A stretch of 64,000 nucleotides of DNA, taken from assembly GCA_000091205.1 (NCBI GenBank), contig AP006495.2, one strand, 5' to 3'. Positions within the stretch are counted from its first letter, which is position 1, and each line of letters begins with the position of its first letter. This DNA comes from Cyanidioschyzon merolae. Lineage: Eukaryota. The translations under genes were made by a program, and so were the position numbers. Positions 1 to 39,176 of the stretch are shown here, piece after piece. A model generated the notes under the pieces. The model was not told the DNA's origin. It was given only the letters and a program-made list of their open reading frames with translations, and made no database searches.

Positions 1-673
1 CCCAAAGCGTGCAACGAAGCAAACGGACCCAGTGTCTGTGTGCTCCCTTCGTCCTAGCGAAATAGCCACAGAACATGCCGCCACACCGCCGCGACCTAGA
101 CTTGCTTGTGGACGGCAACTCTTGAAAAACAAGGCCTCTACCTCGCACGTCTCTGGACTGGAGGTTTTACCCGCACACGTTTCACCCAGTGCGTCCAGTG
201 AGCCAAGTGTTCGCTCTGAGGCGTCGCAGTCGCACAGCGCAAGCACTATCTGACAAGCGAAGCGACTCTTCGAATAAAGTAGGGAGCGAAAGCTTTTCCA
301 AGGGCTTCCAGTGAGCGCGCTTTTGAGTTGCTTGCTCCCGATTCGCTTCCGTAGAGACGCTCACGACACTAACCTGGGCAAAAACCGCACTCGTTTCGCC
401 CGTACTCGAGTCGATTTTGTACGTATGCAAACCCGACCTATTCGTCACTATCACACCAAAGAATCGTCTCTGTTTCCACGAGACGCTTCCTGAACACCAG
501 CACACTGCAACCTACCGGTCGAGATGCTTGCCAGCCTTGACGACCTGCACCGTTCGAGATGTCGATGAGATCGCAACGCTCTCGTAACGACTGGCTAATC
601 GTGGACTGTTGCCTTCATTCTGGAGTAGCACACAAAACGGCGTCAACGTGCGCTCTTTCAGGGCTCGTGTCTA

Positions 674-1549
674 GTGTCCATCAGGAGCATGTGGTTTCTC
701 GGTATTTTCCAGGCCTTATTGCAGCTGTTTTTAGGCTGGCTTTGTCCGGGCTTGACGCTGCGTTCGCTGCGGTTGCACTGGCGACGCGGCTGGCTTGAGC
801 TCCGAAACCTAAACGTACCCGCGAGTATGACTCGCTATCTGCCGGTACGCTTGCCGGTGCGCTTTGTGAGACTGCATGTGGGTAGACTTCGTATAAAGGT
901 ATCGTGGCGAGCGCTTCGCCAACTGGCTCGCTGGCGAGTTCGTAGTCGTCACCAGGGGCCAGACCCGGACACCCGGCGTGTATCATTGAGTTTCTTGTCT
1001 GAGTTGCTTTGCATTGAGATCGAGGATGTGGGTCTGCTATGTACAGACGATACGGAAGCATACTTGGAATCCCGGTTGGAGCGAGCGCTCTGGAAACGTC
1101 TGCAATTGCAGCTCAAGTTAGCCAAGTTGCAGGAGTGTGAACGTCTCGCTGCTCGCGTGCTCCAGCTGCCTGTGATGGGTGCCCTGGAGTCCGGTGCCGC
1201 ATGGGATGCTTCTCTGGATGCAGAGGGAAATGAGGGGCAATTCTTGTTGGAAGATGCCCGGCATCGTCCAGGGAACACTGAAGCGCCCGACGAGGCCGTC
1301 GACATCACACGCAACGCCAGAGCGGATCCTGTCTCCAATGATCGGTGCATCGTAACCACTCAAGTACCGCACGAGAGCGTGTTGCAGGGTTCGGTATCCA
1401 CTGACGGGGCTTGTTCATGGACAGCGGCACCAGTGTCGTCATCCGCAGCGCCTGATGGTGAACCAGCGAAGCAGCTCGTGAACGCGACCCAAAGCGAAGC
1501 ACTGGAGGCATCGAGGCGAACTCATGCGCATGCTTGCACACCAGAACAT

Positions 1550-1582
<33 letters not shown>

Positions 1583-4500
1583 CCCAACGCGCCTTCCATG
1601 GAGGATGCACCGAGCAGAGCGTTGGCATCCACCTTGGAACCGAGCGACCTAATGCGATCGAACAATGTCGTATCGGATCATGGAGAATCCACGGTAACTG
1701 CGGATGCACCAGAGTGCACTGCCCGGCAACATCCATCTGCGGAGGCAACAAGAGAGGCACCAGACTCGGCTGACGCTTCATCGTCTTCAGTCGGTGATGA
1801 ACTTCGCGAGCCGCAGTTGCCGTCCGATACGGGATTGCTTGCATCCCCTGCTGCGACCTCGGAAGCCTCAACGGAACCACACGATGCACCGCAGCTCTCC
1901 GAGACCGGAGCAAGCGGTATCGCGACCACCACCGGCACCACGGAAGCATTGGCGCTCGACTGGGACGCTGCCCCTTTTCTGGAAATCTTCGAGCGTTCCT
2001 CCTGGATCCAAGTATTTCGCCAAGTACGCATTCGACTCCGTCGGGTTTGGATCCGGCTAGAAGCGAGTCCGCAACCGAACGGAAAAGATCACAAAGATAT
2101 GGCTCCAGCGCCGTACGCCCTGGAATGCTCCCTCGAAGACGCGTACCTTGAACCTCCGGATGAAGCGTTTCGTGCACAGGTCCTGGAACGCTGTGGGCTA
2201 TCGCTTCCCGAACTGGATCCATCCGAGGATGCCAGCTACGAAGAATCGGTATTTCTCTGGAGAGGGTGTTGTTTCCGAGGCTTGCGCATACGCTTCGCCG
2301 TGGACGATGAACGCTGGTTACCGTTGCTCGCACAGACACCACAACAGAGTCGAGGTGGTAGCGCGTCCGACGAGCCACCGCTGCCACCACTCCAAGAGTC
2401 CGACTGGGACTGGCTGTGGCGACGACTCCGCCATCGTGAACCTACGAGCTACCTCATTGCAGATCTGCTTCTATTAGCTCGTCTGGGAATCAACATGGCC
2501 GCCTTTGAGGATACCACGCGCTACACAATGGATGCACTCCACCAGAACAGTCTTCCTTTCGCTGCTGGTGCTGGTGCTGGTGCTGGTGCTGCCGCTGCCG
2601 ATACCACCACCATTCGGTTGCATGCAAGTATACCGTATGTGCACGGTCACCTGACGTTAGCGACGTTGTTCAGTCTCACGCGACTAGCTGAACAGCTGGC
2701 GCATTGGTTTTGGCGTGCTTATCTCCATCAAAAGTACGACGTACCTGCGGAACGACCTCGGCGCCTATCACCGTATCGTTTGGCGAGACTTCCGGGTCGG
2801 AGGCATCCCGCTCGGGCCTGGTGGCGCTACGCGGTTCGCTGTGTCCTGGGCCTACGTCGACGGCAACGAAGAGAGGCCGCACTGCCGGCTGCATTACCGG
2901 AACTCTCTCGTTGGTTACGACTTCAGTTATTGTACTTTGCGCTCTACCGCGAACTGGTGTACGGGGAATCTGCACCGAAGCAGCTCTTCGAGTGCGTCAT
3001 GTCCTCGCTGGATGCCGTCGGGGGTCATCGGGTGTGTCCTCGGGAGAATAACGGAGCGCTGCGCTTTCGGAGCGTTTCACAACCTGGATCCGGATTGAAC
3101 CTTGCGGACGATTCCGAGACAGCGCTTCCACGGCGACTGGTCGCTCAACTACGGTATCTGGAAGAGCGCATGCCTCTAGAGCAGCTGCTGAATGCACGAC
3201 TTCTTGTTCATGTGCATGAGCGTGCAAAACGCCTCCAAGCGGAAGCAGCGAACGAGAAACGTTCGTCTTCCTGGTCCAGAGGGCACATCTGGCGCCTGGC
3301 CAGCACTTCATGGCAATGGATTCGGTCGACTGTGAGCTCCTGGTTCGGGACGTATCAGCTCTACCAGGTGGTGAAGCAGCGACGCGAGTCACGCCGAGCG
3401 CTGCGCTGGATAGCCACTGCAACAGAGGCTGCCTCGGATGGAAGCGCGAGAGCCGAGCACTTGTCTCAGGCTTTGGTGACGCAGGCATCCATGGATAGTG
3501 GAGCAGGTGCGCGTGCTCCTGTCAGTGCTGCGACTCGTGCGCCTGCTACGGACGTGTCTGCTCCTGCTTCCGTGGATCCGGGTGCTGCTGCTGCTGCTGG
3601 TGCTGTCGGTGCCGATCACCAGGATATGGACGAGTTCCTGCAACGTCTTCGTGATGCGTTTCATGAGGCCTGGGTGGCAGTCTTCGGCGAGAGCGGGCGC
3701 GATGCTGTTCTTTTCACCGAGTCCCTGGTGGAGGCATTCGAGACCAGCGTACCGCTGGATCTAGAGATGCAGTTGGAGCAAGCCTCGTGGACGCTGCACG
3801 GCATCGGCGACAGCGAGCGTCTGCCAGGCGACTTGCCGTCTTGCACACGAGCTGCCAGCATGCCGAAGAACAACAACAACGAGAACAAGAACAAGAACAA
3901 GAGCAGCGTGTCGGCATCGCTGCTGACGCTACGCCTCCAGGGCATATGGTGGCGTCTGCACGACCTCGGGACGACGAGTCCGCTGCAGACGCAAGTCGTT
4001 GTCCGCGACTGGGAGGTTATCCCAGACGTCGTGCGCGTGCAAGCCCAGACAGAGAGCGTCTTTTACGCTGACCTGCCGAGTACAGCCCCGAGCGCTGCGC
4101 TCTACATGCGGTTGCAAGTTCAGAAACGGGTCGATCGCCGCAACTCCACCACCGACGCGTTACCGCTGCTGCATGAGAATGGGAACGGAGGTGTTCCCGG
4201 TGAGCCTGCTGCACCAGGCACCGCACAGACTCCGTTGCAACCGAGAGAAACCGCCTCGCATGCGACGGGTTGCAACTCGCTTGCCTCCAGTACGGAGACC
4301 GAGTCAGCCTCTGCGCTCTATGTTCGCCTGCAGCCGCTGCGAGTACATTTGCAGACGGAGCAACTGGTGCCACTGCTGTCGTTGCTCCAAGAGTGGCGGG
4401 CTTGTATTCCGCGGTCGCTTGCCGAACGAATCGCTGGCCTCATGCAGGAGCATCCCAGTCGAGCGCGACATCGAGCCATAGAGGCACTGCAACTGGAACA

Positions 4501-23270: not shown

Positions 23271-24224
23271 AGTTTTTTGTTTAACAGCGTGTTTGCATAG
23301 TTCAGCAATCCGCGATGCTACAGTGGATACCGACATTCGGGAGAGCGTTGGTCGTTTTGCCTACATCCAAGGTCCATTATCCATTCGCAAGCATCAACAT
23401 AGCGTGCCCCAGCGCACAACATCATCGCCCCATTGCAGTGCACGGCGCGCTGGGCGCTGTCGAAGCTCGGCGCTTCCAGCCCATAGTCTTCGGTGCTGCA
23501 GCAGGGGAACGTGCCCTCGCGCTTCGCAGGTCCAGTGAACGATAACCATTGTAGGGCGACTGGCGGTTGATATTTTTGTGCGTCGCATCTCGCCGTGGCT
23601 GCGTGTCTGCGGGCATGAGCGAAAACATTTCGGGTAGCTTGGAAGAACGCTCTTGGATCCGCGATCGTTACTCGGCGATGAAGATTGCCTGAATGATAAA
23701 CGATTTCCCAATTGCTGATATCGAGCAAGCAGTCAGGGGTCAACGGTCAGTACAATGGTTCCGTCCAACAGATTAGTGACGTCGAACGCAGTATTCACCG
23801 GCACCGTTCCAGAGCTGGAGACAGAGTGCAGCGCACTGGAAAAGGGCCGGAGGGAGCAGACGGCTCGCGTTTTGGATGAGCGCCTCCCTCATCGATATGC
23901 CAAATCTACTCGGAGATGGTTAGAGAGCGAAGCCATCGGTTTGCTTTTCCTTTCAGAATGGAAAGCGTTCTGACACATGGTTCCTGATACCGGTCATGCG
24001 CCTGCACCTCTTCCATGTGTTTATGTTGCCGCCCAGCGCATATACCAAGGATGCGAAACATCCCTTGAAACCGGAAGCGGCGAGCGCCCCGGCAGAACAG
24101 GGCGCGCATCCCTCCTTCGGATACCGGTGTGTACCGATGTTGTCAGCGGCTGGCACCAAGCGCATAACGAACTCGTCATGCGTTACCCACACAACGAACC
24201 ATAAAATTTTGTTTATCGTCCTCT

Positions 24225-27372: not shown

Positions 27373-29733
27373 ATGAAGGTTCCAAACGGCTCGGACGGTA
27401 CACCCTCCGTGGAAAGCACGGAAAAGGTTTCCCTTACCGACGATGAAATCGTGCCGAACGAGCGCTCAAGGCCTACGAGCTCCCTGGATCTCAGCGCGAA
27501 CGGCCAGCCTCGCTACTCCATCCAGAAGTTGCGAGAGCCACCAAACGTTTTCCATACGCTTGGCGCGTCTCTACTCGGAAGCACCGGGCGACAACTTGAA
27601 AACGGTAGTGATAGAGGAGACCACATTCCAAGCCGCCAACGTTTTCAACAACGAGACCAAGGCCGCCTTGGGGCGTGTCCTATGCAGCCTCGGTTCGACT
27701 GGAAACGTCTCGGTCGCTCGCTCGCTACTATCGGACGCCAATTACCACATGTGTGCTCCAAGTTAATCACAGACTTTGGTACGTGGCTGCTCGACTCATT
27801 TTCGGACCTAGTGCGTCGATCTTCGGCATTTGTACGCCGCTACTGGGTTGCGCTGTTGCTACTGGCGCTTGCAGGCGTCGGGCTCGCTCTACTGGGCAGA
27901 CTCGTTTTTGAACCGCTTTCTTGGAAGGGTTGGTTTACCTTCGCTGTCCTACTCCTGCTGCTTGCTTCACTCATTTGTAGCTGGCTACCAACGGAGGTTT
28001 CGTTTGCGTATGCGGTTGTCACCCTCATGGCCTTTTTCGTGATCTCGCCAGCCGAAGGCCTGATCGGCTTCTCTAACACCGGTGTTGCCGCCGTCGCTGT
28101 CTACTTCATGGTAGCGGAGGGTGTTTACAGAACTTCTGCTCTGCGCACGATCTTTCGAATACTATTGGGACGCCCATCTTCGCTTTTGATGGCACAGGTA
28201 CGCACATGTCTGCCAGCCGCAGTCGTGTCAGCTTTCTTGCACAATACACCTACGATGGTGATGATGATTCCCGGGGTTCAGCGATGGGCGCGTTTTAACG
28301 GCCTCTCTGGAGCGAAAATTCTCATGCCTCTGAACGATGCTGCTGTCCTTGGTGGCTCGACAACCATCATCGGCTCGTCGGTGAACCTCGTAGTGCTTGG
28401 TCTCGTCCAGCAGACGAACGTGCTGGACCCAGCCACGAACCATGTCGTCCAGTTTGGGATCTTTAGCATCACCAAGTTGGCAATCATCAATCTGGCAGCC
28501 TGCCTCGTGTTTATTTTCGTGTTCAGCGGCATGCTGCTCAAGGATCGTGAAAACGTCGTGGAGGACGTAGTTGAGCACCCGCGCGAGTACACAGTCGCTG
28601 TTATGGTTCGCGAAGGATCACCGATTGTTGGTCTAACAATCCAGGAGGCAGGCTTACGCGCCCTCAAGGGTCTCTTCTTGGTAGAGCTGTCACGAAAGAA
28701 CGGTAACTTGATCGCTGCCCCGGGCCCGGATACGGTGATTCAGGCGCAGGACGTTTTGCTCTTCGCTGGTCGCTTGGAAACCGTCGCCGAGCTCTACTTA
28801 ATCGACGGGATCATACCAGCATCGACGCATACTCGCAAACTCTCGGTGCAGATGCACCGGCGCAGACTCTACGAAGTCGTTGTTTCGCCGTTCAGCTCCC
28901 TGGTGGGCCACACCATCCGGGAGACCAACTTTCGGCGCAAGTACCATGCTGCAATCATTGCCGTTCATCGTGGCGGCGCCATTGTGCGGGAGAAAATCGG
29001 TGATATTCAGATTCTCGGTGGAGAGACCTTCATCGTTGAAGCGAGCGAAGATTTCGGTGAACGCTACGCTCGAGACTCCGACTTCAGCCTCGTAAGTGAG
29101 GTGAGTGGCACTGAGCGGCCCCGGGAGGATCTCCCTCATATGCTCGCAGCGGGTCTCTTTGTCGTGCTGATGATCGCTTTTGCAACCACGGGATTCATGT
29201 CGATTTTCGTGAGTGCGAGTCTCGCCACCATAGGGATGCTCATTACGGGGTGTATGACTTTTCGGCAAGCGGGCGCCTCCGTGCAATTGCCGATTCTGCT
29301 CACCATAGGTGCGGCCTTTGGTATCAGTGAAGCGATGCAGGTTTCGGGGGTAGCCGCCCAGCTTTCGCTGCTTATTGTGAAGATCCTGCGCCCGTTGGGG
29401 TCGATTGGAATCCTCTTTGGCATCTACGTCATCACTGCATTGCTGACGAATGCCATTACGAGCATTGGAGCAGTGACGTTGACGTTTGCGATCGTGGCAA
29501 GTAAGGGCACAGGGATTATCTACCTGACGCAGGTGAACGTGTATGCGGCGCTCTATACGATGATGGTCGCAGGAAACTGCTCCTTCATGTTGCACACTGG
29601 CCACCAAACGAATCTCATGGTGCACGGCGCCGCGAATTACCGCGTCTCCGACTGGTTGAAACTCGGCGTGCCTCTTCAGCTCGTGAGCTGTATTGTGACG
29701 GTGGTGGCTGCCAACTTTCTGTACCGGTCCTAG
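27373..29733 (+). CDS. Ion-transporter-superfamily anion permease (CitMHS/DASS-like, YfbS-type) with two central TrkA-C (RCK_C) domains
   Basis: Transmembrane helices at both ends, with FLHNTPTMVMMIPGV and GSSVNLVVLG permease-type motifs. Two cytoplasmic TrkA-C-like units lie between them (YTVAVMVREGSPIVGLTIQEAGLRALKGLFLVEL...; LYEVVVSPFSSLVGHTIRETNFRRKYHAAIIAVHRGG...). The ATG start is confirmed. Confidence 0.65.
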   Translation: MKVPNGSDGTPSVESTEKVSLTDDEIVPNERSRPTSSLDLSANGQPRYSIQKLREPPNVFHTLGASLLGSTGRQLENGSDRGDHIPSRQRFQQRDQGRLGACPMQPRFDWKRLGRSLATIGRQLPHVCSKLITDFGTWLLDSFSDLVRRSSAFVRRYWVALLLLALAGVGLALLGRLVFEPLSWKGWFTFAVLLLLLASLICSWLPTEVSFAYAVVTLMAFFVISPAEGLIGFSNTGVAAVAVYFMVAEGVYRTSALRTIFRILLGRPSSLLMAQVRTCLPAAVVSAFLHNTPTMVMMIPGVQRWARFNGLSGAKILMPLNDAAVLGGSTTIIGSSVNLVVLGLVQQTNVLDPATNHVVQFGIFSITKLAIINLAACLVFIFVFSGMLLKDRENVVEDVVEHPREYTVAVMVREGSPIVGLTIQEAGLRALKGLFLVELSRKNGNLIAAPGPDTVIQAQDVLLFAGRLETVAELYLIDGIIPASTHTRKLSVQMHRRRLYEVVVSPFSSLVGHTIRETNFRRKYHAAIIAVHRGGAIVREKIGDIQILGGETFIVEASEDFGERYARDSDFSLVSEVSGTERPREDLPHMLAAGLFVVLMIAFATTGFMSIFVSASLATIGMLITGCMTFRQAGASVQLPILLTIGAAFGISEAMQVSGVAAQLSLLIVKILRPLGSIGILFGIYVITALLTNAITSIGAVTLTFAIVASKGTGIIYLTQVNVYAALYTMMVAGNCSFMLHTGHQTNLMVHGAANYRVSDWLKLGVPLQLVSCIVTVVAANFLYRS

Positions 29734-31052
29734 CACATGTCGCGGATGTGTTTTCGACGCAAAACAGTGGATGGTGATCTGCACTGGAAAACGCTTTGGC
29801 GATGACGTCGCTCATATTCGACCTAGAGTCATGATCTGATCGGGTTTGTCCAAGTACCTGCGTGGCCCGCACCTGATGTGTAGGATTCCGAGTCCGGAAC
29901 GATGTCGAGTGCATCGAAAGAGAAAAAGATGCGTTTCGGTGCCGTTTTCTTGTGATTCGACAGCGTTGGCGCTCAAGTGACGGCTGTCGTGGATGTGCAA
30001 GCTGTTCCGCTCTCCTGCAGGCGGTGTCAACTCCAGGTATCTGCTTCTAGTCTATCAAGTCAGTTTTGTCTCGCCCTCGCTGCGGATGATAGCATGAGAA
30101 CGAATTCACGATGTAATGTGTTTTATAGACCGTCCATCATTTGCCCAGAGGATATAGATTCCTCACTTAACGGTACAAGGAGGAATGCATTCGTCCTTTA
30201 GTTCAGTCATACCACGGTACTCTGATGGTTGAGGAGCACTGAACGGAAGACGTAGATGTGCTCTGCGTCAAAAAATGGTATTATCGAAGCTTGCCTGCGG
30301 CCAATGATGGAAAATGACTGGCGAATCCCTACCGGCAAGCGAAAGCGACGATGGTAGCCGCCATAGGCGTCCTTGTTTCTCAACAGCTTGTTCTTTTGGT
30401 CCTGAAAGCACGGGCATCCAGTTGCAAAAAAGAGTCCTATTTCAATCACGGCCATCTTCCACGGAAATAGCGGTGACAGCGTTCCTGTAACGTTGCGATC
30501 CGGATGAAACACAGGGACGTAGGTTTTTGTTTCCAGTCGATGAGAATTTCTTCGGGTGCAACGGTCGGAGTGCGTACGGGTATTCGCGGTGAAGCGAGCC
30601 CGTTGTATGTGAGATCGAACGTGAAGAGATCGACGACACCATCTGTTCTCGACGTGGTAAATTCATTTGACGGCCTCAGTTTGGCTCGTAGAGAAGGCTC
30701 ATCGAATAGCAACAACCACTTTGTCGAATCATTGAAGACTTTTGTCTGACGTCTGACGACGTCTTTCTTTTGGACAAAGTGGTATTCCACCATTCTCCTT
30801 GTGTTCGAGCTTTTGCGAATTCTATGTGGATAGAGCTGCTTTTCATACTTCTGTACGCTCCATGGTTGAATTCCGTTTTAGGATTCATTTCTATTGTGAA
30901 ATATAATGATCGCTCCACTGGGCGGATCGCTGATGCTCTCAGCACACGGTGACACACTGGAAGCATATTTCGCCTTTCTTGCGCAAGTGCTTCTCCCTCC
31001 GGGCAGGTTTCCACGCAAGGGCGTAAAGAAGTAGGTTCATTTTAAAAAAATA

Positions 31053-31628
31053 ATGGATGAATTCGAATGCGCATTTCACAGGGTCGAGACTGAGAGAGCG
31101 AGAAGACAGCAGAGCGCACCGGCGATAGAAACGCACGGAGAGATGACAGAGCACCAAATGATGTCGAGGGCGCGAGTTCGGGCAATTCTTACATTGATGA
31201 GTTCCACCAGCGGGAATAAATGCATAGAGTTCGCGAACCCAGACTTCAATGCCGCCATCAACATCAGACAATATCTGGTGTTGAAGACGAGACCCAGGGA
31301 GCTGACGCGATGTAGCTCTGTGGGGCAGCCTCTCAGGGTCGTACTGCGTCCGAATGAAAAAAGAAATCGATATCAGGAGCTCCGTCAAAATAGACCCGAA
31401 CGCGTCTGCGGGAGAGTATTAATTTACCCCAGAAAGAACAGAAACTATGTCGCTCAACAGAACAAGCGCGCGTCGAGTGGAACAGCGTTATCGCAACGCG
31501 GGAGTCGCAACACTACCATTTCCGTGCATTCGCGTGTCGGAGCACCGTTCGAGTCATATATTCTTGTGGTTTCGCTCGCGCTAGGTGTGAGTCATGAGGT
31601 CCTGCAGTCAGTTAGACTGAGGACTTGA
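31053..31628 (+). pseudogene. Truncated C-terminal fragment of a Fanzor1/TnpB-like RuvC nuclease (RuvC-II remnant to RuvC-III)
   Basis: MDEFECAF (degenerate vDEfrTSk.C) ... CIEFANPDFNAAINIRQYLVLKTRPRELTR matches the RDxNAAxNI RuvC-III signature. It is paralogous to 35615-35893(-), ...VGFVNRDFNAAIIIRRCAVMENRPPKLTR. There is no upstream N-terminal half and no CxxC zinc finger. Confidence 0.5.
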
Positions 31629-31749
31629 GCGCTCCTTCTTGTGCCCTGGTGACCATAGTTATCACGGGGAGTCGCAGAACCAAAAGCACCAGCAGACTCG
31701 GCGAGTTCGAGGTAAGCGTTTCAAGCTCACAACTCCTGTTGCAGTCGGT

Positions 31750-33375
31750 ATGGACGCCCGGTTCGTTACAGACAGCGATCGTTTACAACCTGTGCGGAAG
31801 CGAGTCTATCGAATTCGCCTCTCTGAAGGGGAACAACTCTGTCTCTGTGGAAAGTACAGCGTTACCATTGCTGGCGCTCAAGGTCCCCTGCGGCAGCGTT
31901 TGTTCTTTAACAGTGCAGAGACAGCACTGAGCATTTGGCAGGACCCGGTGCCTGTCGATGCACCTGCCTGGCAAAGTGCACCGGTCTGGCGGGTGCAACA
32001 GGGGCAACTCGTACTTCTCATCACGGATCGTAGCCGCGGTTCCTATCCGTGGCCTATTCGTCTATCAGCGCCAGCAGAAAACAGCCAGCATTTGACCCCG
32101 AAGTCACTCGTTGCTCGTTACACCGCACCGCCGCTGCACTTTTCCGGGCTAGAGAACCTTGTTGCAGCACTACCAGGGGAGCAAGCTCCTGTTGTGCTGG
32201 TTGCTGGACCCCGCCATACCGGCAAATCAACACTCGTATCGCAGTTGAGTTTCATGGGCTGGCCCTATCACCCGCAGCCGCTCATTCTGGAACTCGATTT
32301 AGGTCAGAATTATTTCTTAGCTCCTGGGTACGTCTCTTTCCATGAAGTTCGCGACTTGGCGTGGCCGATATGGAGGGCATCGACTGCGTGCCTCGAGAGC
32401 GTCTTCTGCGGGAACGTCACACCATTCGCGGATCCGGCGTTGTATCGACAGGCGGTGCAGCGATTGTGGAGCGCTTGCGAAGCTTGGCGCGGGAAACGAC
32501 TGGTGCTCGTGAACACAATGGGTTGGGTTCGTGGCTATGGCGAAGTGCTACTCGGCTCCGTGCTGGACACGATTCGCCCCGACCTTATCGTTTGGGTCAG
32601 CGAAGGAACCGATGCGCAACACGCTGGTGGCGAAGCAGAAATAGAAGCATTCGGTACCACTGCCGGGTCACGTGTTCAGGTGCTACACGTCCAGCGAGCC
32701 CCGAGTTCGGCTCACAAGCAGCGATCGCTGTTACCAGCAGTTGCGCGTGCGTCCCAACTCATCCATGAACTTGTGCAGCAGTGTGAAGATGGATTACCAC
32801 GCGGAATCATTGCGGATCAGTTCCGGTGGTTTTTATGGCAGAATCAACCGGCATACCCGATTGTTCAGTTGCTTTGCAGCATCACACCGTGGTGCGTGCC
32901 CCTGGAGTTCTTTGCGGCAGTATTCATGATCGAGCCGTGCGGGATGCATCGTCTCCAGCCTGGCCATGATTCGGAGCGATTATACAGCATGCTGAACGCC
33001 AGTGTCGTCGCATTGTGTGTTACTGTGATCGATAAGGAGGAACCGACGGAGGAGATATCGTTGCAGGCGCCGCAGCGATGGCTCCTGCGCTCCCCTGGTC
33101 TGGGGCTCGTGCGATCGATTGACCCACAAAATGGTCTTCTCTACATCGTGACGAGCGTACCCCTCAGCGTCCTAGAAAGCACGGTTGCTCTCGCGATGAG
33201 CCCCGAGGTGCAGCTTCCCGCAGCAGCTCTGCAACTCGGAGGCATGGAAGCGGAACCGTTTCTGGGTCTGGGGTGCACCGGAACCGCTGAGGATACGGCT
33301 TCTGATGCTGTGGTAACTTCACGGAAGAATCTTCTCCGCAGACGCCTGATGAAAGCGAAGGTGTCGCCTTCATGA
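31750..33375 (+). CDS. Clp1/Grc3(NOL9)-family polynucleotide 5'-hydroxyl kinase
   Basis: P-loop VVLVAGPRHTGKSTLVSQL. The following ELDLGQ and LVNTMGWVRGYGEVLLGSVLDTIRPDLIVWV blocks match Clp1 ELDVGQ...INTCGWVKGSGY...VDVVVVL. The track start at 31639 is TTG; the first ATG (MDARFVTDS) is at about 31750. Confidence 0.6.
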   Translation: MDARFVTDSDRLQPVRKRVYRIRLSEGEQLCLCGKYSVTIAGAQGPLRQRLFFNSAETALSIWQDPVPVDAPAWQSAPVWRVQQGQLVLLITDRSRGSYPWPIRLSAPAENSQHLTPKSLVARYTAPPLHFSGLENLVAALPGEQAPVVLVAGPRHTGKSTLVSQLSFMGWPYHPQPLILELDLGQNYFLAPGYVSFHEVRDLAWPIWRASTACLESVFCGNVTPFADPALYRQAVQRLWSACEAWRGKRLVLVNTMGWVRGYGEVLLGSVLDTIRPDLIVWVSEGTDAQHAGGEAEIEAFGTTAGSRVQVLHVQRAPSSAHKQRSLLPAVARASQLIHELVQQCEDGLPRGIIADQFRWFLWQNQPAYPIVQLLCSITPWCVPLEFFAAVFMIEPCGMHRLQPGHDSERLYSMLNASVVALCVTVIDKEEPTEEISLQAPQRWLLRSPGLGLVRSIDPQNGLLYIVTSVPLSVLESTVALAMSPEVQLPAAALQLGGMEAEPFLGLGCTGTAEDTASDAVVTSRKNLLRRRLMKAKVSPS

Positions 33376-33977: not shown

Positions 33978-34276
33978 TTTTTTTCATGGACAAAACGTTT
34001 ACTTAGGCCAGCGTTCTCCGATTATGCGCTTTTTTCTTTTCTTGCTTTTTTTTGTGTTTTTTCAGTGCACGGTGAGGTATCCATCAAACCCCCTACCTCC
34101 AAGTTACATGACCCATACTTCGTCTCGGATATTCTGGTCGTTTCATACGTCTTATCGTGTGTGCCTAGTGCCTGCCGAAAGCGGCGACAGCAATAGCGCC
34201 TGTAGCGCCGGTGCGGTCGCTGCACGGAGACAGAACGGCGTTGCCGTACCACACACAGAGGGCGTCGGCTCGAGGC
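33978..34276 (+). repeat. Left copy of an approximately 300-bp direct repeat (about 75% identical to 38083-38373)
   Basis: Shared blocks include acgtttacttaggccagcg, a T-run, gtatccatcaaacccc, tccaagtt, catacgt...tatcgtgtg, cgttgccgtaccaca and ggctcgaggc. Confidence 0.7.
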
Positions 34277-34411
34277 AGTGCGGGGCAATGCCAGCGCAAG
34301 GCGGTGCCGATTTGCATGGCTCCTGACGCTAGACAACCGGAGCGCTGTTGCGGTCCGAGCAGCAGCACAACGCGGCCTTCACATATCAAGAGACCTATGA
34401 GGCAGCTGTTT

Positions 34412-35491
34412 TCAGGGGTTCAAATCATCTTGAATAATCTCGTCACCAAGGCCTTGCAGGCTCTCATCCTGATTCGTCACTAATCGCTTGAGTTCCAGGA
34501 AGCGCTGGCATTTGAACATAAGCGCAGGCGTCATCATGTCAAGCGCTGCGCCCCGTCCACTTCGACGTTGAGACTCCCCCAAAGTCACCGCTTCAATATC
34601 AGATGCTCGGGGACGTCTGCCCATTCGCGTATAGAAGCCATCGCTCCAGAGTTTGAGGTCCATAGCGAGTGCCGTGAACTGCCGTTTCAGCCGATCGAAG
34701 GCGTTCTCTTCTGAGGTGTCACTGTTAGTGCGGGCCTCGGTGCCTGCACGGTCTCCTCTTCGCTTTACCCAATGGCGGAGCATCGCTCGCCGAATCTTTT
34801 CTCGGGTCGCCTCAGAATGCTTCTTGCCGCGATTCCAGGCCGGTTTTCCCGACAAGGCCTGACGCATTCGTGCTCGAAACGCCGGATCTTGCCAACGTTT
34901 AGATAGGGATGCAGCTTGCTTTGCGATCGTCCCGTTCGACCGCCTGTTCTGCAAAAGCCGAGCGCGCAGCAGTGGGTCCGTCCAGCGTAATCGCATCGTC
35001 TCTGCACGGGTGCTGCTCGGCGTTCGTTTGCGTGCAGGTGGTGCCGTCGGGGACTTCGATTCCGGGTCAAGCGGCTCTGGTTCTGTGCACGCGGTTACTG
35101 CTGCAGCTGTTGGAGTAGACCGCCTAGCGTTCACAGCTTGTCGCTTCTCGTTCACGTCGTCAGGCACTGGAAAAAGCTGCCCAGAGAATACCACCCCAGT
35201 CGATTTACAGTACGTTTCAGGTGTCAGTGCCGTTGTGGCTGTGCCCACTACGTTTGCTAGGATATTGTGTGCAATTCGCGAGCTCCTGAAACCGAGGCTC
35301 TGTAAACTCGAGAGAGCTTCGTTCGCGTGTGGCACCCAACGCTGACCCTTTTGCAGCCCAAGGGTCAGGGCGGACGTCACGTCACGCGTTGTGTGTAACT
35401 TGCAGCGCAGGGGAACCGCTTTACGACCGCAGCGCTCCATTTTGCAATTGCTGAAAGCAGAACAAATGAACATCACCGCAAAGGCACACAA
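34412..35491 (-). CDS. Protein with tandem NUMOD3-type DNA-binding motifs (homing-endonuclease-associated module); function unknown
   Basis: Repeats RWTDPLLRARLLQ, RWQDPAFRARMRQALSGKPAWNRGKKHSEATREKIRRAM match the NUMOD3 consensus G.kHSeETk.KIs. The protein is basic and S/T/P-rich. I could not recognise a GIY-YIG or other catalytic core. Confidence 0.4.
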   Translation of the reverse strand: MCAFAVMFICSAFSNCKMERCGRKAVPLRCKLHTTRDVTSALTLGLQKGQRWVPHANEALSSLQSLGFRSSRIAHNILANVVGTATTALTPETYCKSTGVVFSGQLFPVPDDVNEKRQAVNARRSTPTAAAVTACTEPEPLDPESKSPTAPPARKRTPSSTRAETMRLRWTDPLLRARLLQNRRSNGTIAKQAASLSKRWQDPAFRARMRQALSGKPAWNRGKKHSEATREKIRRAMLRHWVKRRGDRAGTEARTNSDTSEENAFDRLKRQFTALAMDLKLWSDGFYTRMGRRPRASDIEAVTLGESQRRSGRGAALDMMTPALMFKCQRFLELKRLVTNQDESLQGLGDEIIQDDLNP

Positions 35492-35614
35492 AACGCCGTT
35501 CTAAACTCGAACGACGCCGACCGTCTACAGTAGTGGCGAGAAGCCCGCCCTTGACAAGAAATCTCCAACTGACGTGCGGACGCCTCCTGGTCTTGTTCGA
35601 CCGGCCACCTACTA

Positions 35615-37922
35615 CTATTTCCAATTTTTTTCATATAGTTCGACTTTAAGAGATTCTCCTACAAAATTCTCTCGTGTCAACTTTGGGGGTCTGTTCTCCA
35701 TCACCGCACATCTCCTTATAATGATTGCGGCGTTAAAGTCCCGGTTCACAAACCCCACACGTTTCTTGCCATTGATTGTACTTTCTAATGCAAGTAGTCC
35801 ACGAACTTTCGCTCTCCTTTCCATTCGCTCTTCCGTCAGCGCTCCGTACTTTGCTATATCCTCAGGGCTCCGCTGGCCCTTTTCTATCTCCACTCTCTGA
35901 AGTGTACAACCTGGCTCGTGGTGTGTGTAGCACCTTCAGATCCCATCTATCGGTATCGGAACGAAACGCCGTGCACACTCCTTGTGCGTTCTGGTCGTTG
36001 GAGCTGGCGTAGTCCCTTTTTGGGGCTTCCAGCGCCCTGCCCCGTATGCTACTACGAGCCTCTGACTTTCATCCTCATTCAGGGCGCTCAACTGATTGAA
36101 AAAATTCGCGAACGCCCGCTGTTTCCCACAGTATAGATTCATTCGCAGATGAGCCCACCGGGGCTGGGTATACTCTTTCCACAGCGACTCCCAGTGAGCA
36201 GGGCGAACTTTCATGAATTTCCGAAACGCTTGACAGTCTGCTCCGCGGCTCGTCACCTCGCCCAAAGCTTCCAGGTGATCCTTCATTCCTGCATTCTACG
36301 TAACGATTTTCTTCCTTGCATTCATTATACCGGATTCTCGATGGTACCGTGCTCTCGAGAATCTCAAAAGACGCATGTCTTTCTGACGCAAGTTGCCGGC
36401 AGTACCATCTTCCGCACGTTTGGGTACTGCGATGGTTATGATATTTGTGTTTCCGGGGTCCGCGCCAACGACAAAGTCGTTCTCATGCACTTCCTGCGTG
36501 GTAGGATCCGCCTCCTTCTCATCTTCATGATTCGCCGCGCCTACGAAAAGGTCGTTCCCCTCCACCTCCTGCGTCACAGGATCCGCCTCTTTGTTTTATT
36601 CATGCTTCGCCGAGGTCGAAGCCGAGGGCGGGACAGGGCGATTTGTCTTCGACTGCCGATAGTGTACGCACATGGCTACCCAATCGGTTCCGATCATCCC
36701 AGTGAATACCTTTTGTTTGCTCAGTCGGAGACGTTTAAAATCGAAGATACTCTTCCTGTACGTCTCTCGGTTTTCACCTATGAACTCCTCCCTGCTAACA
36801 TTGAACTCGGGACTGATCTCCTTCATGATGCCGTAAAGGACTCTGGGGTCGATAGTCACAAAATGCGCCTTGATGTTGCACAACTGAATGACGTTGAAGC
36901 GCTTGCCCATTAGGAAAGCCTTCCGTCTCTCCCACTCTTCATTCCATTTCCTCAATCAGCTTCATCTCCGCCTTCCGTTCGAGTTTCCGGTTCAGGAATA
37001 CGAAATGGCGCAGAATGAGGCGATAGTATCTTTCCTCATCTTTTTTCAACTCTGATATCTTGTCTGCTGGATTCGCCAGCCCCAAGAATGCACGATGCTC
37101 TTGTACAGCCGCACAGATTACAGAAGCTTCATTCGTGCTCTTGTTTGACACCTTCTTCCCAACAAATTCGATATCCTGTTCATGCTTGCGATCGTTCGTG
37201 ATGCCATTGATAATCGCCTATACTCCGTTGCGAGACAGGCCCGAGCACAGCGCAAATACGGCGCGTATCATGAAACTTTCGAGGTTCATAGTCAAATGCT
37301 TCTTCAGGTTCGTGATGTACTTCATCGCCCGATAGTCGTAAATATCCACGTGACCCTTGTATCGAGTACCATCGAAGCTGTAAAAGGGATTTTTTTCGTG
37401 GAGGGCGTGAACTCGCTCATTTTCCCTCCGCGCTTCCGCTGTGCCAAGCATCAGGTGCCGACTAAAATTCTTATCGAAAAATCCTCCGGAATCTCGACCG
37501 TTTCCATGTGCGTCACCTCGCGATACATCTCCCGCACCAAATGCATCAGTCCTGAGGACGCCTTGACAATACTCTTGGAGTACGAGTCGATACTTTTTCG
37601 ATAGCGTGTCGCAACTTTTCCCTGTAGGGATCCTTGATATGTCCAAGAAGAAAGGTTTTCACCACCCTCTCGTCGTACAGCCGTCTTTCTTGGCGCCTTC
37701 GACGGAGGACCTTCCCCCTTCGGTTCTTCTTCTCTTCCTTTTCTTCCGGACTCGGCACTGTTTTTTTCTGGCAGCCGGCGACCGTTGGCCTCCAGGATCG
37801 TCGACTTGCTTTTTCATAACTTTCCTTTTTTTAAGTTCTTTTGAAAAATAACGCTCTTTGAACCCTTCTGTTATATACCGCGAAAAACACTTGAATACAC
37901 TTGTTTGAGGTTCCAAAAACAA
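35615..37922 (-). pseudogene. Degenerate Fanzor1/TnpB-like RNA-guided RuvC endonuclease gene (about 770-aa span broken into at least 8 frame segments)
   Basis: K/R-rich, NLS-like N-terminus (KELKKRKVMKK...RKKQCRVRKKRKRRR) at 37659-37922. Ruv[19 protein letters not shown] at 36296-36577. RuvC-II block LVVAYGAGRWKPQKGTTPAPT at 35936-36286. RuvC-III NRDFNAAIIIRRC at 35615-35893. Multiple frameshifts and stops lie between the segments. Confidence 0.55.
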
Positions 37923-38082
37923 ATGAACTGAATGACTGTACCTGGCTACGACCTCAACGAAAATACAAATTCTACATGAGATCTACATGCTAGAGATCAG
38001 GATCATGTTTCCCTTCAATGGCGGCATGCGCGTCGCGCCAGTTGACTGCCCGACCTCCGAGGTGCGCTCACTAAGCGCGATT

Positions 38083-38373
38083 CTTTTTTTCTCATTGACA
38101 GAACGTTTACTTAGGCCAGCGGCCTCCGATTGAGCGCTTTTTCTTCTCATACTATTTTTCTGTTTTTGTAGTGCGCGGTAAAGTATCCATCAAACCCCGT
38201 ACTTCCAAGTTCCGTTGCCCATACTTTTTCTCGGATATACTGGCCGTCTCATACGTTCTATCGTGTGCTGAGTACCTGACTCGTTCGTCCGCATTAGCGC
38301 CCATAGCGCCTGCGCCGCCGCTGTACGGAGATAGCACGACGTTGCCGTACCACAAAGGGCATCGGCTCGAGGC
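38083..38373 (+). repeat. Right copy of the approximately 300-bp direct repeat
   Basis: See the left copy. Its minus-strand ORF 38152-38382 is similar to 34022-34336 (YETTRISETKYGSCNLEVGGLMDT vs YETASISEKKYGQRNLEVRGLMDT). Confidence 0.7.
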
Positions 38374-39176
38374 CTGCTTCATCCGACGTAGAATCGGGTC
38401 TCGTCCTCAGTTTGTGCTCGGACAGTCTGCGGATGCAGGCTTGTCTTCGCTGCACGACACGCTGGAGAAACTTGGCTGTTAGGATATATCATGGGAGCCG
38501 CCTCTTTCCTTCGCGATCATGCATGGAATGCGTCGTTGTCGGTTGGCAATGCGGGTTTGTGTTTGACACCCACCACAGTGGGTAGGCGTAGAGAGCACTA
38601 AACCCGTGTGCGCATCCGATTCGCTCGACCTTCCGCCTAGAAGGTAGAGTGTGAGTTTGTTCGCCACTTATGAGCGCTGAGGCTCGGTTAGCGGACCATC
38701 ACATGCCAGTGCTACACTCAAAGTGAGTGTCCGGCCTTTGACTATCACGCTGCTGCCCAGCTGCTGCTGTCCTTCAAGGAGCTCGCTGTGCTCCTGCTTC
38801 CAGCGCGGGCACTGTAAGCCTAAATATGGCAGCGTCCGGGGGTCTCGTTTCCACAGCAGGGACAGTGTGATTCCCAGTGCGTTTCCAGTGTCCCTATACG
38901 GCTTAGAGGCGGTGCTGCTAGCCAGAAGCCGGCAACGTAGATTTGCGTCTTCTGGATACACTGCCGCACAACAGCGCACGCCGAGATCGACCACCGCCGT
39001 AGCCTCCACCAGTCGTACTGCAGCCGATGATGCTCGCACGCTGGCCCTGAGCGGCATCTCGATCTCTTTTGTGAGAAAGATACGGGTCACTGCTGTACAG
39101 CGATGACCGGAGCTCGCTAGGGAGTCTTATAGGATAGGTTGATGTTCCGACTTTCTTCGCATTCTTTTTTCTCGAG

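Follow-up and report, generated by a model that had tools for sequence, protein, structure and literature searches.

CMe-1A, a Fanzor1 element of Cyanidioschyzon merolae, was described with a 3169-bp consensus that encodes the 734-aa CMe-1 protein and with ~150 copies, whose identity to that consensus is ~80% each; terminal inverted repeats (TIRs) are absent and target-site duplications (TSDs) were left undetermined (Bao & Jurka 2013, Mob DNA 4:12, PMC3627910). The 5' 635 bp of CMe-1A are common to another element, TE-N2_CMe, and modular sharing of this kind was reported for other Fanzor1 families as well, the MCi-2 subfamilies sharing 3' ends only (PMC3627910). The C4 zinc finger motif was treated as conserved both in that work and by Saito et al. 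2023 (PMC10432273), who describe Fz1 of Spizellomyces punctatus (Protein Data Bank, PDB, 8gkh). The present analysis concerns a 64-kb stretch of C. merolae DNA (the window), in which a 191-aa open reading frame (ORF) at 31053-31628(+) carries a fragment of such an element upstream of a polynucleotide 5'-kinase gene, and a second, pseudogenised copy lies at 35494-38067(-). An earlier note on this DNA had taken the fragment for a truncated Fanzor C-terminus whose former 3' region now serves the kinase gene as promoter and 5' leader. With a probability of about three in four, the flagged stretch is instead an old, non-functional CMe-1 Fanzor1 relic that forms the 3' module of a composite repeat and drifts neutrally.

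Homology and extent of the Fanzor-derived segment

The ORF at 31053-31628(+) is present as it had been described. Composition-adjusted BLASTP aligned its residues 19-98 without a gap to the C-terminal ORF piece of the pseudogenised copy (35615-35893, minus strand), with 46% identity over 80 aa (E = 2e-21); the earlier figure of ~50% identity was fair. When the 712-aa protein reconstructed from that copy was searched against the 64-kb window by tblastn, one extra match was obtained, at 31068-31346. A hidden Markov model (HMM) of the family proteins matched 31056-31346 (E = 1e-23) in the six frames of 29700-31800, and detected in these frames no further Fanzor piece and no RuvC-I region. At the protein level the fragment is 31056-31346(+), ~97 residues that correspond to residues 612-706 of the CMe-1 protein. 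The published CMe-1 consensus protein is its top match among 288 family proteins, own locus excluded (54.6% identity, BLASTP E = 1e-24).

At the DNA level, nhmmer with profiles of ~40-70 family copies gave matches at 31057-31213 (E = 8e-13) and 31176-31409 (E = 4e-31), which delimit a homologous segment of ~353 bp. Profiles of consensus positions 640-2900 found no other Fanzor gene fragments upstream of the relic (29700-31056). Plain blastn of the fragment against the full copy or the CMe-1A consensus gave nothing significant, and consensus ~2735-3085 is seen by profile alone; the fragment is not assigned to CMe-1A by nucleotide similarity or by termini. An alignment of the two window copies had been proposed in the earlier note; the similarity proved significant for the proteins and was not detected by plain blastn, the nucleotide identity being 61%. 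Identity of the fragment to the CMe-1A consensus is 67%, and that of the neighboring copy to the consensus is 86.5%. The low nucleotide identity, together with the consensus as best match, marks the fragment as a far older derivative of the CMe-1 family.

The fragment contains the RuvC-II glutamate ('MDEF') and the RuvC-III aspartate ('PDFNAAINI', 'DFNAAINIR') and lacks the RuvC-I aspartate; the R of the RD motif is replaced by P. The complete RuvC triad (D...E...D) is not found in one polypeptide. As judged from its sequence, the fragment cannot make a nuclease because RuvC-I is missing, and it encodes the last ~13% of the protein.

The assignment of the family to Fanzor1 rests on profile comparison. 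A profile from 40 diverse full-length relatives matched the PDB Fanzor1 chains 9cf0 (8e-20), 8gkh (1.3e-12) and 9cer (3e-6) with the three RuvC motifs in register, whereas a narrow profile of 20 close copies gave no match in PDB. Intact relatives carry the motifs GADPGN, VDEFRTS and RDFNAAINI. In metagenomes from JGI and ENA, a database search returned 174 close relatives with identities of 60-78%; an exhaustive HMMER search gave 1486 relatives at E ≤ 1e-3. Pfam searches with single ORF pieces, the concatenated full copy and intact relatives gave no Fanzor or TnpB match, and the only precomputed domain label for the family is DUF8286. Homology to Fanzor1 is given by the 40-relative profile for the family and by the match to the CMe-1 protein for the fragment. 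The Fanzor identification, including that of a C-terminal remnant, is correct; the CMe-1 family has been known since 2013, and the fragment is one more, ordinary, decayed copy.

The composite repeat

The Fanzor-derived segment is the 3' module of a 1380-bp unit (Table 1), of which a second copy was found on contig Ga0080006_1142693 (L014/L085, 6856->5486) with 68.7% identity over 1398 nt (E = 4.5e-141). Taken by part, the window and L085 copies are 69.3% identical in the 1.0-kb upstream module and 68.2% identical in the Fanzor part. The alignment is colinear and unbroken across the junction, and the junction motif GTTCATTTT..AAAA is present in both copies. The truncation at consensus ~2735 is common to both copies and hence existed in their common ancestor; it is not local. 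The view of the fragment as a 5'-truncated insertion, put forward in the earlier note, is not supported on this point, since the 1380-bp unit aligns straight through the truncation point with the second copy.

The 1.0-kb 5' module (30048-31056) has no similarity to any part of CMe-1A, Fanzor included, by protein HMM or nhmmer; tblastx of this module gave equal identity on both strands, hence no coding evidence. Direct inspection revealed sharp edges and unrelated flanks, and neither a TSD nor a TIR at the edges of the unit. No composite copies beyond these two were found in ~0.7 Mb of related loci. Both copies are followed by a gene on the same strand, at 322 bp in the window and at 147 bp (an LSM gene) in the second copy.

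In the proposed history, the composite of an unrelated 1.0 kb and a Fanzor 3' module would have existed first and would then have been copied, by transposition or segmental duplication, to at least two genomic places. About 350 bp, encoding the last ~97 nuclease residues, would have survived. The part of the element expected to hold the omegaRNA 3' end (terminal hairpin and flank junction) would be absent or eroded, and the remaining sequence would now drift neutrally, with the 191-aa ORF open by chance. The position upstream of the kinase gene would fit the same-orientation habit of the family near host genes, and no specific regulatory exaptation would be needed.

Alternatively, the two 1380-bp copies might stem from duplication, segmental or ectopic, of a locus in which a Fanzor element lay already broken, and not from a mobile non-autonomous composite. 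This is possible, if rather unlikely. It agrees with the count of just two copies in ~0.7 Mb of related sequence, a count that covers this sequence only, and with a composite that has no TSD, no TIR and neither CMe-1A terminus. It agrees less well with the sharpness of both edges between unrelated flanks and with the like modular sharing reported for CMe-1A/TE-N2_CMe and for other Fanzor1 families with shared 3' ends (PMC3627910). If Fanzor pieces are shuffled into composite repeats, as the favored reading of an old relic within a composite holds, an apparent truncated insertion can be inherited structure.

The kinase gene and its upstream spacer

The gene downstream of the fragment had been called Clp1-like in the earlier note. 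Its CLP1_P and NOL9_C domains place it in the NOL9/Grc3 type. The positions given there for the stop of the 191-aa ORF (31628), for the TTG that opens the kinase ORF (31639) and for the first ATG (31750) are correct, but the 11-bp abutment of the fragment to the kinase ORF is artefactual and stems from mechanical ORF calling. The alignment with an orthologue, P0137 (52% identity), begins at ATG 31750, and there is no in-frame ATG upstream. By this alignment the true start of the kinase gene is ATG 31750, and TTG 31639 is the mere opening of a mechanical ORF. The 322-bp spacer between the composite and this ATG (31428-31749) would be the likeliest site of the core promoter and 5' untranslated region (UTR) of the gene.

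The spacer was searched for remains of the element. A profile of the terminal 86 nt of the family, which cover the hairpin and the flank junction, found nothing in 31400-31760 even at E ≤ 100. Folding of the spacer is no better than that of shuffled sequence (z = -0.73), and Rfam and tRNA scans of the whole window gave no match. Protein HMM and nhmmer searches detected no similarity of the spacer to the CMe-1A ends or to TE-N2. The 1083 bp that precede the kinase orthologue of a related species (L004) are free of any Fanzor trace; this locus is 4 kb long, shows no conserved synteny on the upstream side and cannot date the insertion. The segment 31495-31600 was considered as a TE-N2-like 5' end, because one protein, P0044, runs from a CMe-1A end into a TE-N2 start, and was rejected, as nhmmer with the TE-N2 profile gave no support.

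These results bear on the proposal of a Fanzor insertion before the kinase gene that underwent a local loss of its 5' part and whose 3' UTR/omegaRNA region was exapted as promoter and 5' leader. The fragment does precede the kinase gene in the same orientation, and the second composite copy is likewise placed before its LSM gene. In the family at large, 29 of 58 unique CMe-1A 3' ends have a same-strand host ATG at most 120 bp downstream, as compared with 6 of 42 for 5' ends, and where a 3' end is so near to an ATG, as at 16 bp from KTI12, the host promoter or 5' UTR would have to overlap the element. At the kinase locus itself, however, the repeat ends at 31427, 322 bp before the ATG; the terminal hairpin and omegaRNA-end region, for which the earlier note had asked for a search, are undetectable; and there is neither excess structure nor an Rfam match. 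The truncation is shared with the paralogous copy and so is not local, conservation of the segment does not exceed that of intergenic DNA, and the upstream DNA of the related species has no Fanzor trace. The proposal is accordingly judged unlikely. Promoter exaptation of the fragment is unsupported rather than disproved, and it is geometrically unnecessary. The general idea of the earlier note does find a counterpart in the family, in the CMe-1A 3' ends close to host start codons; owing to the 322-bp spacer, the missing terminus and the lack of constraint, the fragment is a poor example of it.

Coding potential and selection

At least 15 records of metagenomes or assemblies (JGI, ENA, Logan) list the 191-aa ORF under the name 'hypothetical protein'. 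Its database relatives are only 15 population variants of its own locus, 96-99% identical to one another, all of which keep the 191 codons open; a word-based search among 5.8 billion proteins found no homologue outside this locus. Three DNA haplotypes (window, L001 and L003) were compared, with small counts throughout. Variable codons in the ORF were 7 non-synonymous and 2 synonymous, as compared with 5 and 14 in the adjacent CitMHS transporter gene. Pairwise divergence was 1-2% in 31053-31346, 0-1.4% in 31347-31628, 0.7-1.1% in intergenic DNA and 0.3-0.7% in the transporter coding sequence; neither conservation nor purifying selection was found for the element-derived segment. The paralogous copy of the ORF in the second composite holds an in-frame stop and a frameshift. 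The ORF is most likely a chance-open pseudogene remnant; a functional gene appears unlikely and the public annotation is probably spurious.

That the ORF is a domesticated mini-protein, in which the C-terminal (NUC/RuvC-III) module of Fanzor was retained for a new, non-nuclease function, is very improbable. Its openness in 15/15 variants, an ATG directly before the DEF motif and its prediction by JGI gene callers speak for such a protein. They are outweighed by the 7 to 2 ratio of non-synonymous to synonymous changes, which is near the neutral expectation, the disrupted paralogue, the lack of homologues outside the locus, the replaced arginine and missing RuvC-I aspartate, and the location of half of the ORF in unique sequence outside the repeat. 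A chance or low-complexity match, an objection raised in the earlier note itself, is refuted by the pairwise (2e-21, composition-adjusted), protein HMM (1e-23) and DNA HMM (4e-31) scores and by the aligned catalytic motifs, the segment not being of low complexity.

Several observations weigh against a neutrally drifting relic in a composite repeat. The ORF is open in all 15 variants, which is weak evidence since divergence is only 1-4%. Its last ~55 codons are nearly invariant among the variants and could hint at constraint near the kinase gene, although the counts are tiny. With two composite copies only, the name 'repeat family' rests on thin numbers. Finally, both composite copies lie upstream of a same-strand gene (322 and 147 bp) and intact family members very often abut host start codons, so that a regulatory contribution is possible.

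Family 3' ends and host start codons

The surroundings of the family were surveyed in 80 fetched loci, which yielded 58 unique 3' flanks and 42 5' ends; host genes were scored as ATG-initiated ORFs of ≥150 aa. A same-strand ORF of this kind begins within 60 bp of the CMe-1A 3' end in 19/58 cases and within 120 bp in 29/58; an opposite-strand ORF is equally close in 6/58 only. The corresponding numbers for 5' ends are 0/42 within 60 bp and 6/42 within 120 bp, and the difference between 3' and 5' ends is significant at both distances (Fisher p = 1e-5 and 2.6e-4, respectively). The downstream ORFs fall into 29 unrelated clusters, and housekeeping domains were found in 9 of the 10 that were scanned against Pfam. 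In the KTI12 gene the ATG follows the consensus end by 16 bp, with profile position 1 at residue 1. The distance from 3' end to ATG is 30 bp for a cysteinyl-tRNA synthetase, 13 bp for a DEAD-box helicase and 54 bp for UFD1. Further domains encoded downstream are FtsZ, ATP synthase beta, phosphoglucomutase, class IV aminotransferase and a protein of the exo/endonuclease-phosphatase family.

The full copy in the window provides another case. It ends at 35494, and the first ATG of a gene with a NUMOD3 motif lies 21 bp downstream on the same strand, at 35473. NUMOD3 is otherwise typical of homing endonucleases, but the gene appears to be a cellular one here. In the related species the NUMOD3 gene is syntenic and stands tail-to-tail with the NOL9-like gene (L004 3348-4016, minus strand), the kinase orthologue there being 52% identical.

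Where a host ATG is 5-60 bp from an intact CMe-1A end, transcription would have to start inside the element. CMe-1-type Fanzor1 elements might then be mobile sources of host promoters or 5' leaders, or might home specifically to the 5' ends of genes, with the kinase relic as an old example and the copy next to the NUMOD3 gene as a young one. This idea, which builds on the mere 5-120 bp between the end of about half of the copies and the start codon of an unrelated, same-strand housekeeping gene downstream, is put forward as a tentative one that is on balance doubtful. If it is true, host transcription would begin within the 3' end of the element, the expected omegaRNA region. The orientation-specific abutment of 3' ends to host start codons is itself strong, is unreported in the searchable literature and is the item worth follow-up, while the fragment itself matters little. 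Should transcripts bear it out, the ends of Fanzor elements would be shown to drive many housekeeping genes in a minimal eukaryotic genome, and the mechanism by which a transposase-less Fanzor element is targeted or retained would become directly testable.

The full copy, the family termini and other features

The features of the locus are listed in Table 1. The window has a GC content of 55% and contains long intron-free ORFs; together with the CMe-1A match, these features point to C. merolae, or else a very near relative, as its source.

Table 1. Coordinates of the repeat-derived features and neighboring genes in the window
Feature	Position	Strand	Remarks
Composite repeat unit, 1380 bp	30048-31427	+	First ~1.0 kb non-Fanzor, last ~370 bp Fanzor-derived
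Fanzor1 relic (CMe-1 type, 3' part)	31057-31409	+	CMe-1A consensus ~2735-3085 of 3169 bp
ORF, 191 aa	31053-31628	+	Codons 1-98 Fanzor-derived, remaining ~93 probably chance read-through
Unique spacer, 322 bp	31428-31749	+	Between composite end and kinase ATG
NOL9/Grc3-type polynucleotide 5'-kinase gene	31750-33375	+	541 aa from ATG 31750; Pfam CLP1_P (2e-21), NOL9_C (4e-9)
Host gene with NUMOD3 motif	34412-35473 (stretch to 35491)	-	Pfam NUMOD3; not part of the transposon
'Full' copy, pseudogenised CMe-1A Fanzor1	35494-38067	-	Consensus 660-3169, without the TE-N2-like 5' 635 bp
TE-N2_CMe-like repeat	38097-38649	+	Equals the CMe-1A 5' 635 bp; nhmmer, direct repeats, blastn
Further TE-N2-like copies	33989-34277, 23283-23385	+	nhmmer

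The copy that the earlier note placed at 35.6 kb is, by its nucleotide similarity, an ordinary pseudogenised member of the published CMe-1A family. Blastn aligned 38067->35515 to consensus 660-3145 with 84-88% identity, and a variant 3' tail was read on to 35494; the copy thus covers consensus 660-3169 and has an intact 3' end. Frame analysis rebuilt its minus-strand Fanzor gene from 37758 to 35615 with 3 in-frame stops and at least 2 frameshifts. The three RuvC motif sites are present, but the RuvC-II glutamate is mutated (IPIDGI*). At 36460-36609 this copy contains a 75-bp tandem duplication (79% identity) that encodes an acidic 'KHEE.KEADP..QEV.DND' repeat; the number of repeat units differs among relatives, with several in P0001 and P0002.

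The earlier note had remarked that both window copies lack CxxC and had concluded that the loss predates their duplication, which is true but trivial. Among the 90 relatives with a delimitable segment from RuvC-II to RuvC-III, this segment has two or more CxxC in 0/90 and one CxxC in 2/90, and the published consensus likewise has none. Sub-threshold matches to PF07282 (E ~ 1e-3) were seen in a few distant relatives. The C4 zinc finger (OrfB_Zn_ribbon/TNB) expected of Fanzor1 is not found. The missing CCCC zinc finger is a trait of the whole clade and says nothing specific about the two window copies.

The 3' end of CMe-1A is sharply defined as ...GCCACTACTGTACACCGCTGGCG, to which either of two tails with hairpin potential is attached. 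These tails read ...GGCGTCGTTCGACTTTCGAACGGCG and ...GGCGACAACGTTTTTCTTTTGAAAGGCG; both are able to fold into a terminal hairpin of 8-10 bp, in differing registers (e.g. 35494-35520, minus strand). The first 8 nt of flank after the consensus end are conserved as TTTGTTGT, with TT in 29 of 32 unique flanks (L006-L081); either the element truly ends ~8 nt beyond this point or its insertion favors particular target sites. When a four-helix structure of the 3' end was drawn by hand, 78% of cells paired, as compared with 33-58% when the partners were slid. This structure showed no covariation above shuffles, RNAalifold gave no consensus for the family 3' ends, and single-sequence folding of the 3' end gave z = -1.31. 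The missing covariation is expected, because the copies are decaying.

The nhmmer E values of the three TE-N2-like copies are 1.6e-58, 3.9e-47 and 2.5e-8. In about half of the CMe-1A copies the TE-N2_CMe-like 5' 635 bp are missing and the sequence begins at consensus ~660. The TE-N2-like repeat of the window at 38097-38649(+) stands head-to-head with the Fanzor body on the minus strand; in L002 both modules are arranged in tandem. The published CMe-1A consensus may represent the frequent juxtaposition of two separate elements.

Comparison with known systems

In general terms, the fragment resembles host promoters and 5' UTRs derived from transposable elements (TEs), such as the outward-reading promoters of insertion sequences, in that it precedes a host gene in the same orientation. 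It differs from them in that a 322-bp spacer of non-TE sequence intervenes and no sign of constraint is seen.

Like TE-N2_CMe (the 5' 635 bp of CMe-1A in common) and the MCi-2 subfamilies (3' ends only), the composite shares one segment with a Fanzor-carrying element and is unrelated to it in the rest. Unlike in these, the shared segment is internal, 3'-proximal coding sequence; it stops ~60 bp before the CMe-1A terminus, and trans-mobilisation via a shared end is therefore not evident. As regards CMe-1A itself, the copy at 35494-38067(-) is a plain member with 84-88% nucleotide identity. The fragment is homologous, yet far more diverged (67% as against ~80-88% in typical copies), is devoid of both termini and, joined to 1.0 kb of unrelated DNA, belongs to a distinct repeat unit that has edges of its own.

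SpuFz1 and TnpB share a CCCC zinc finger (Saito et al., PMC10432273), which is absent from the CMe-1 clade. The omegaRNA at the 3' end of CMe-1 is predicted only, in which the family again differs from the solved Fanzor1 proteins. With those of Parasitella parasitica (9cf0), Spizellomyces punctatus (8gkh) and Guillardia theta (9cer), the family profile aligns over the WED/RuvC core, and the RuvC-I aspartate (DPG), the RuvC-II glutamate (DEFRT) and the RuvC-III aspartate (RD.NAA.NI) are all in register with those of the CMe-1 family.

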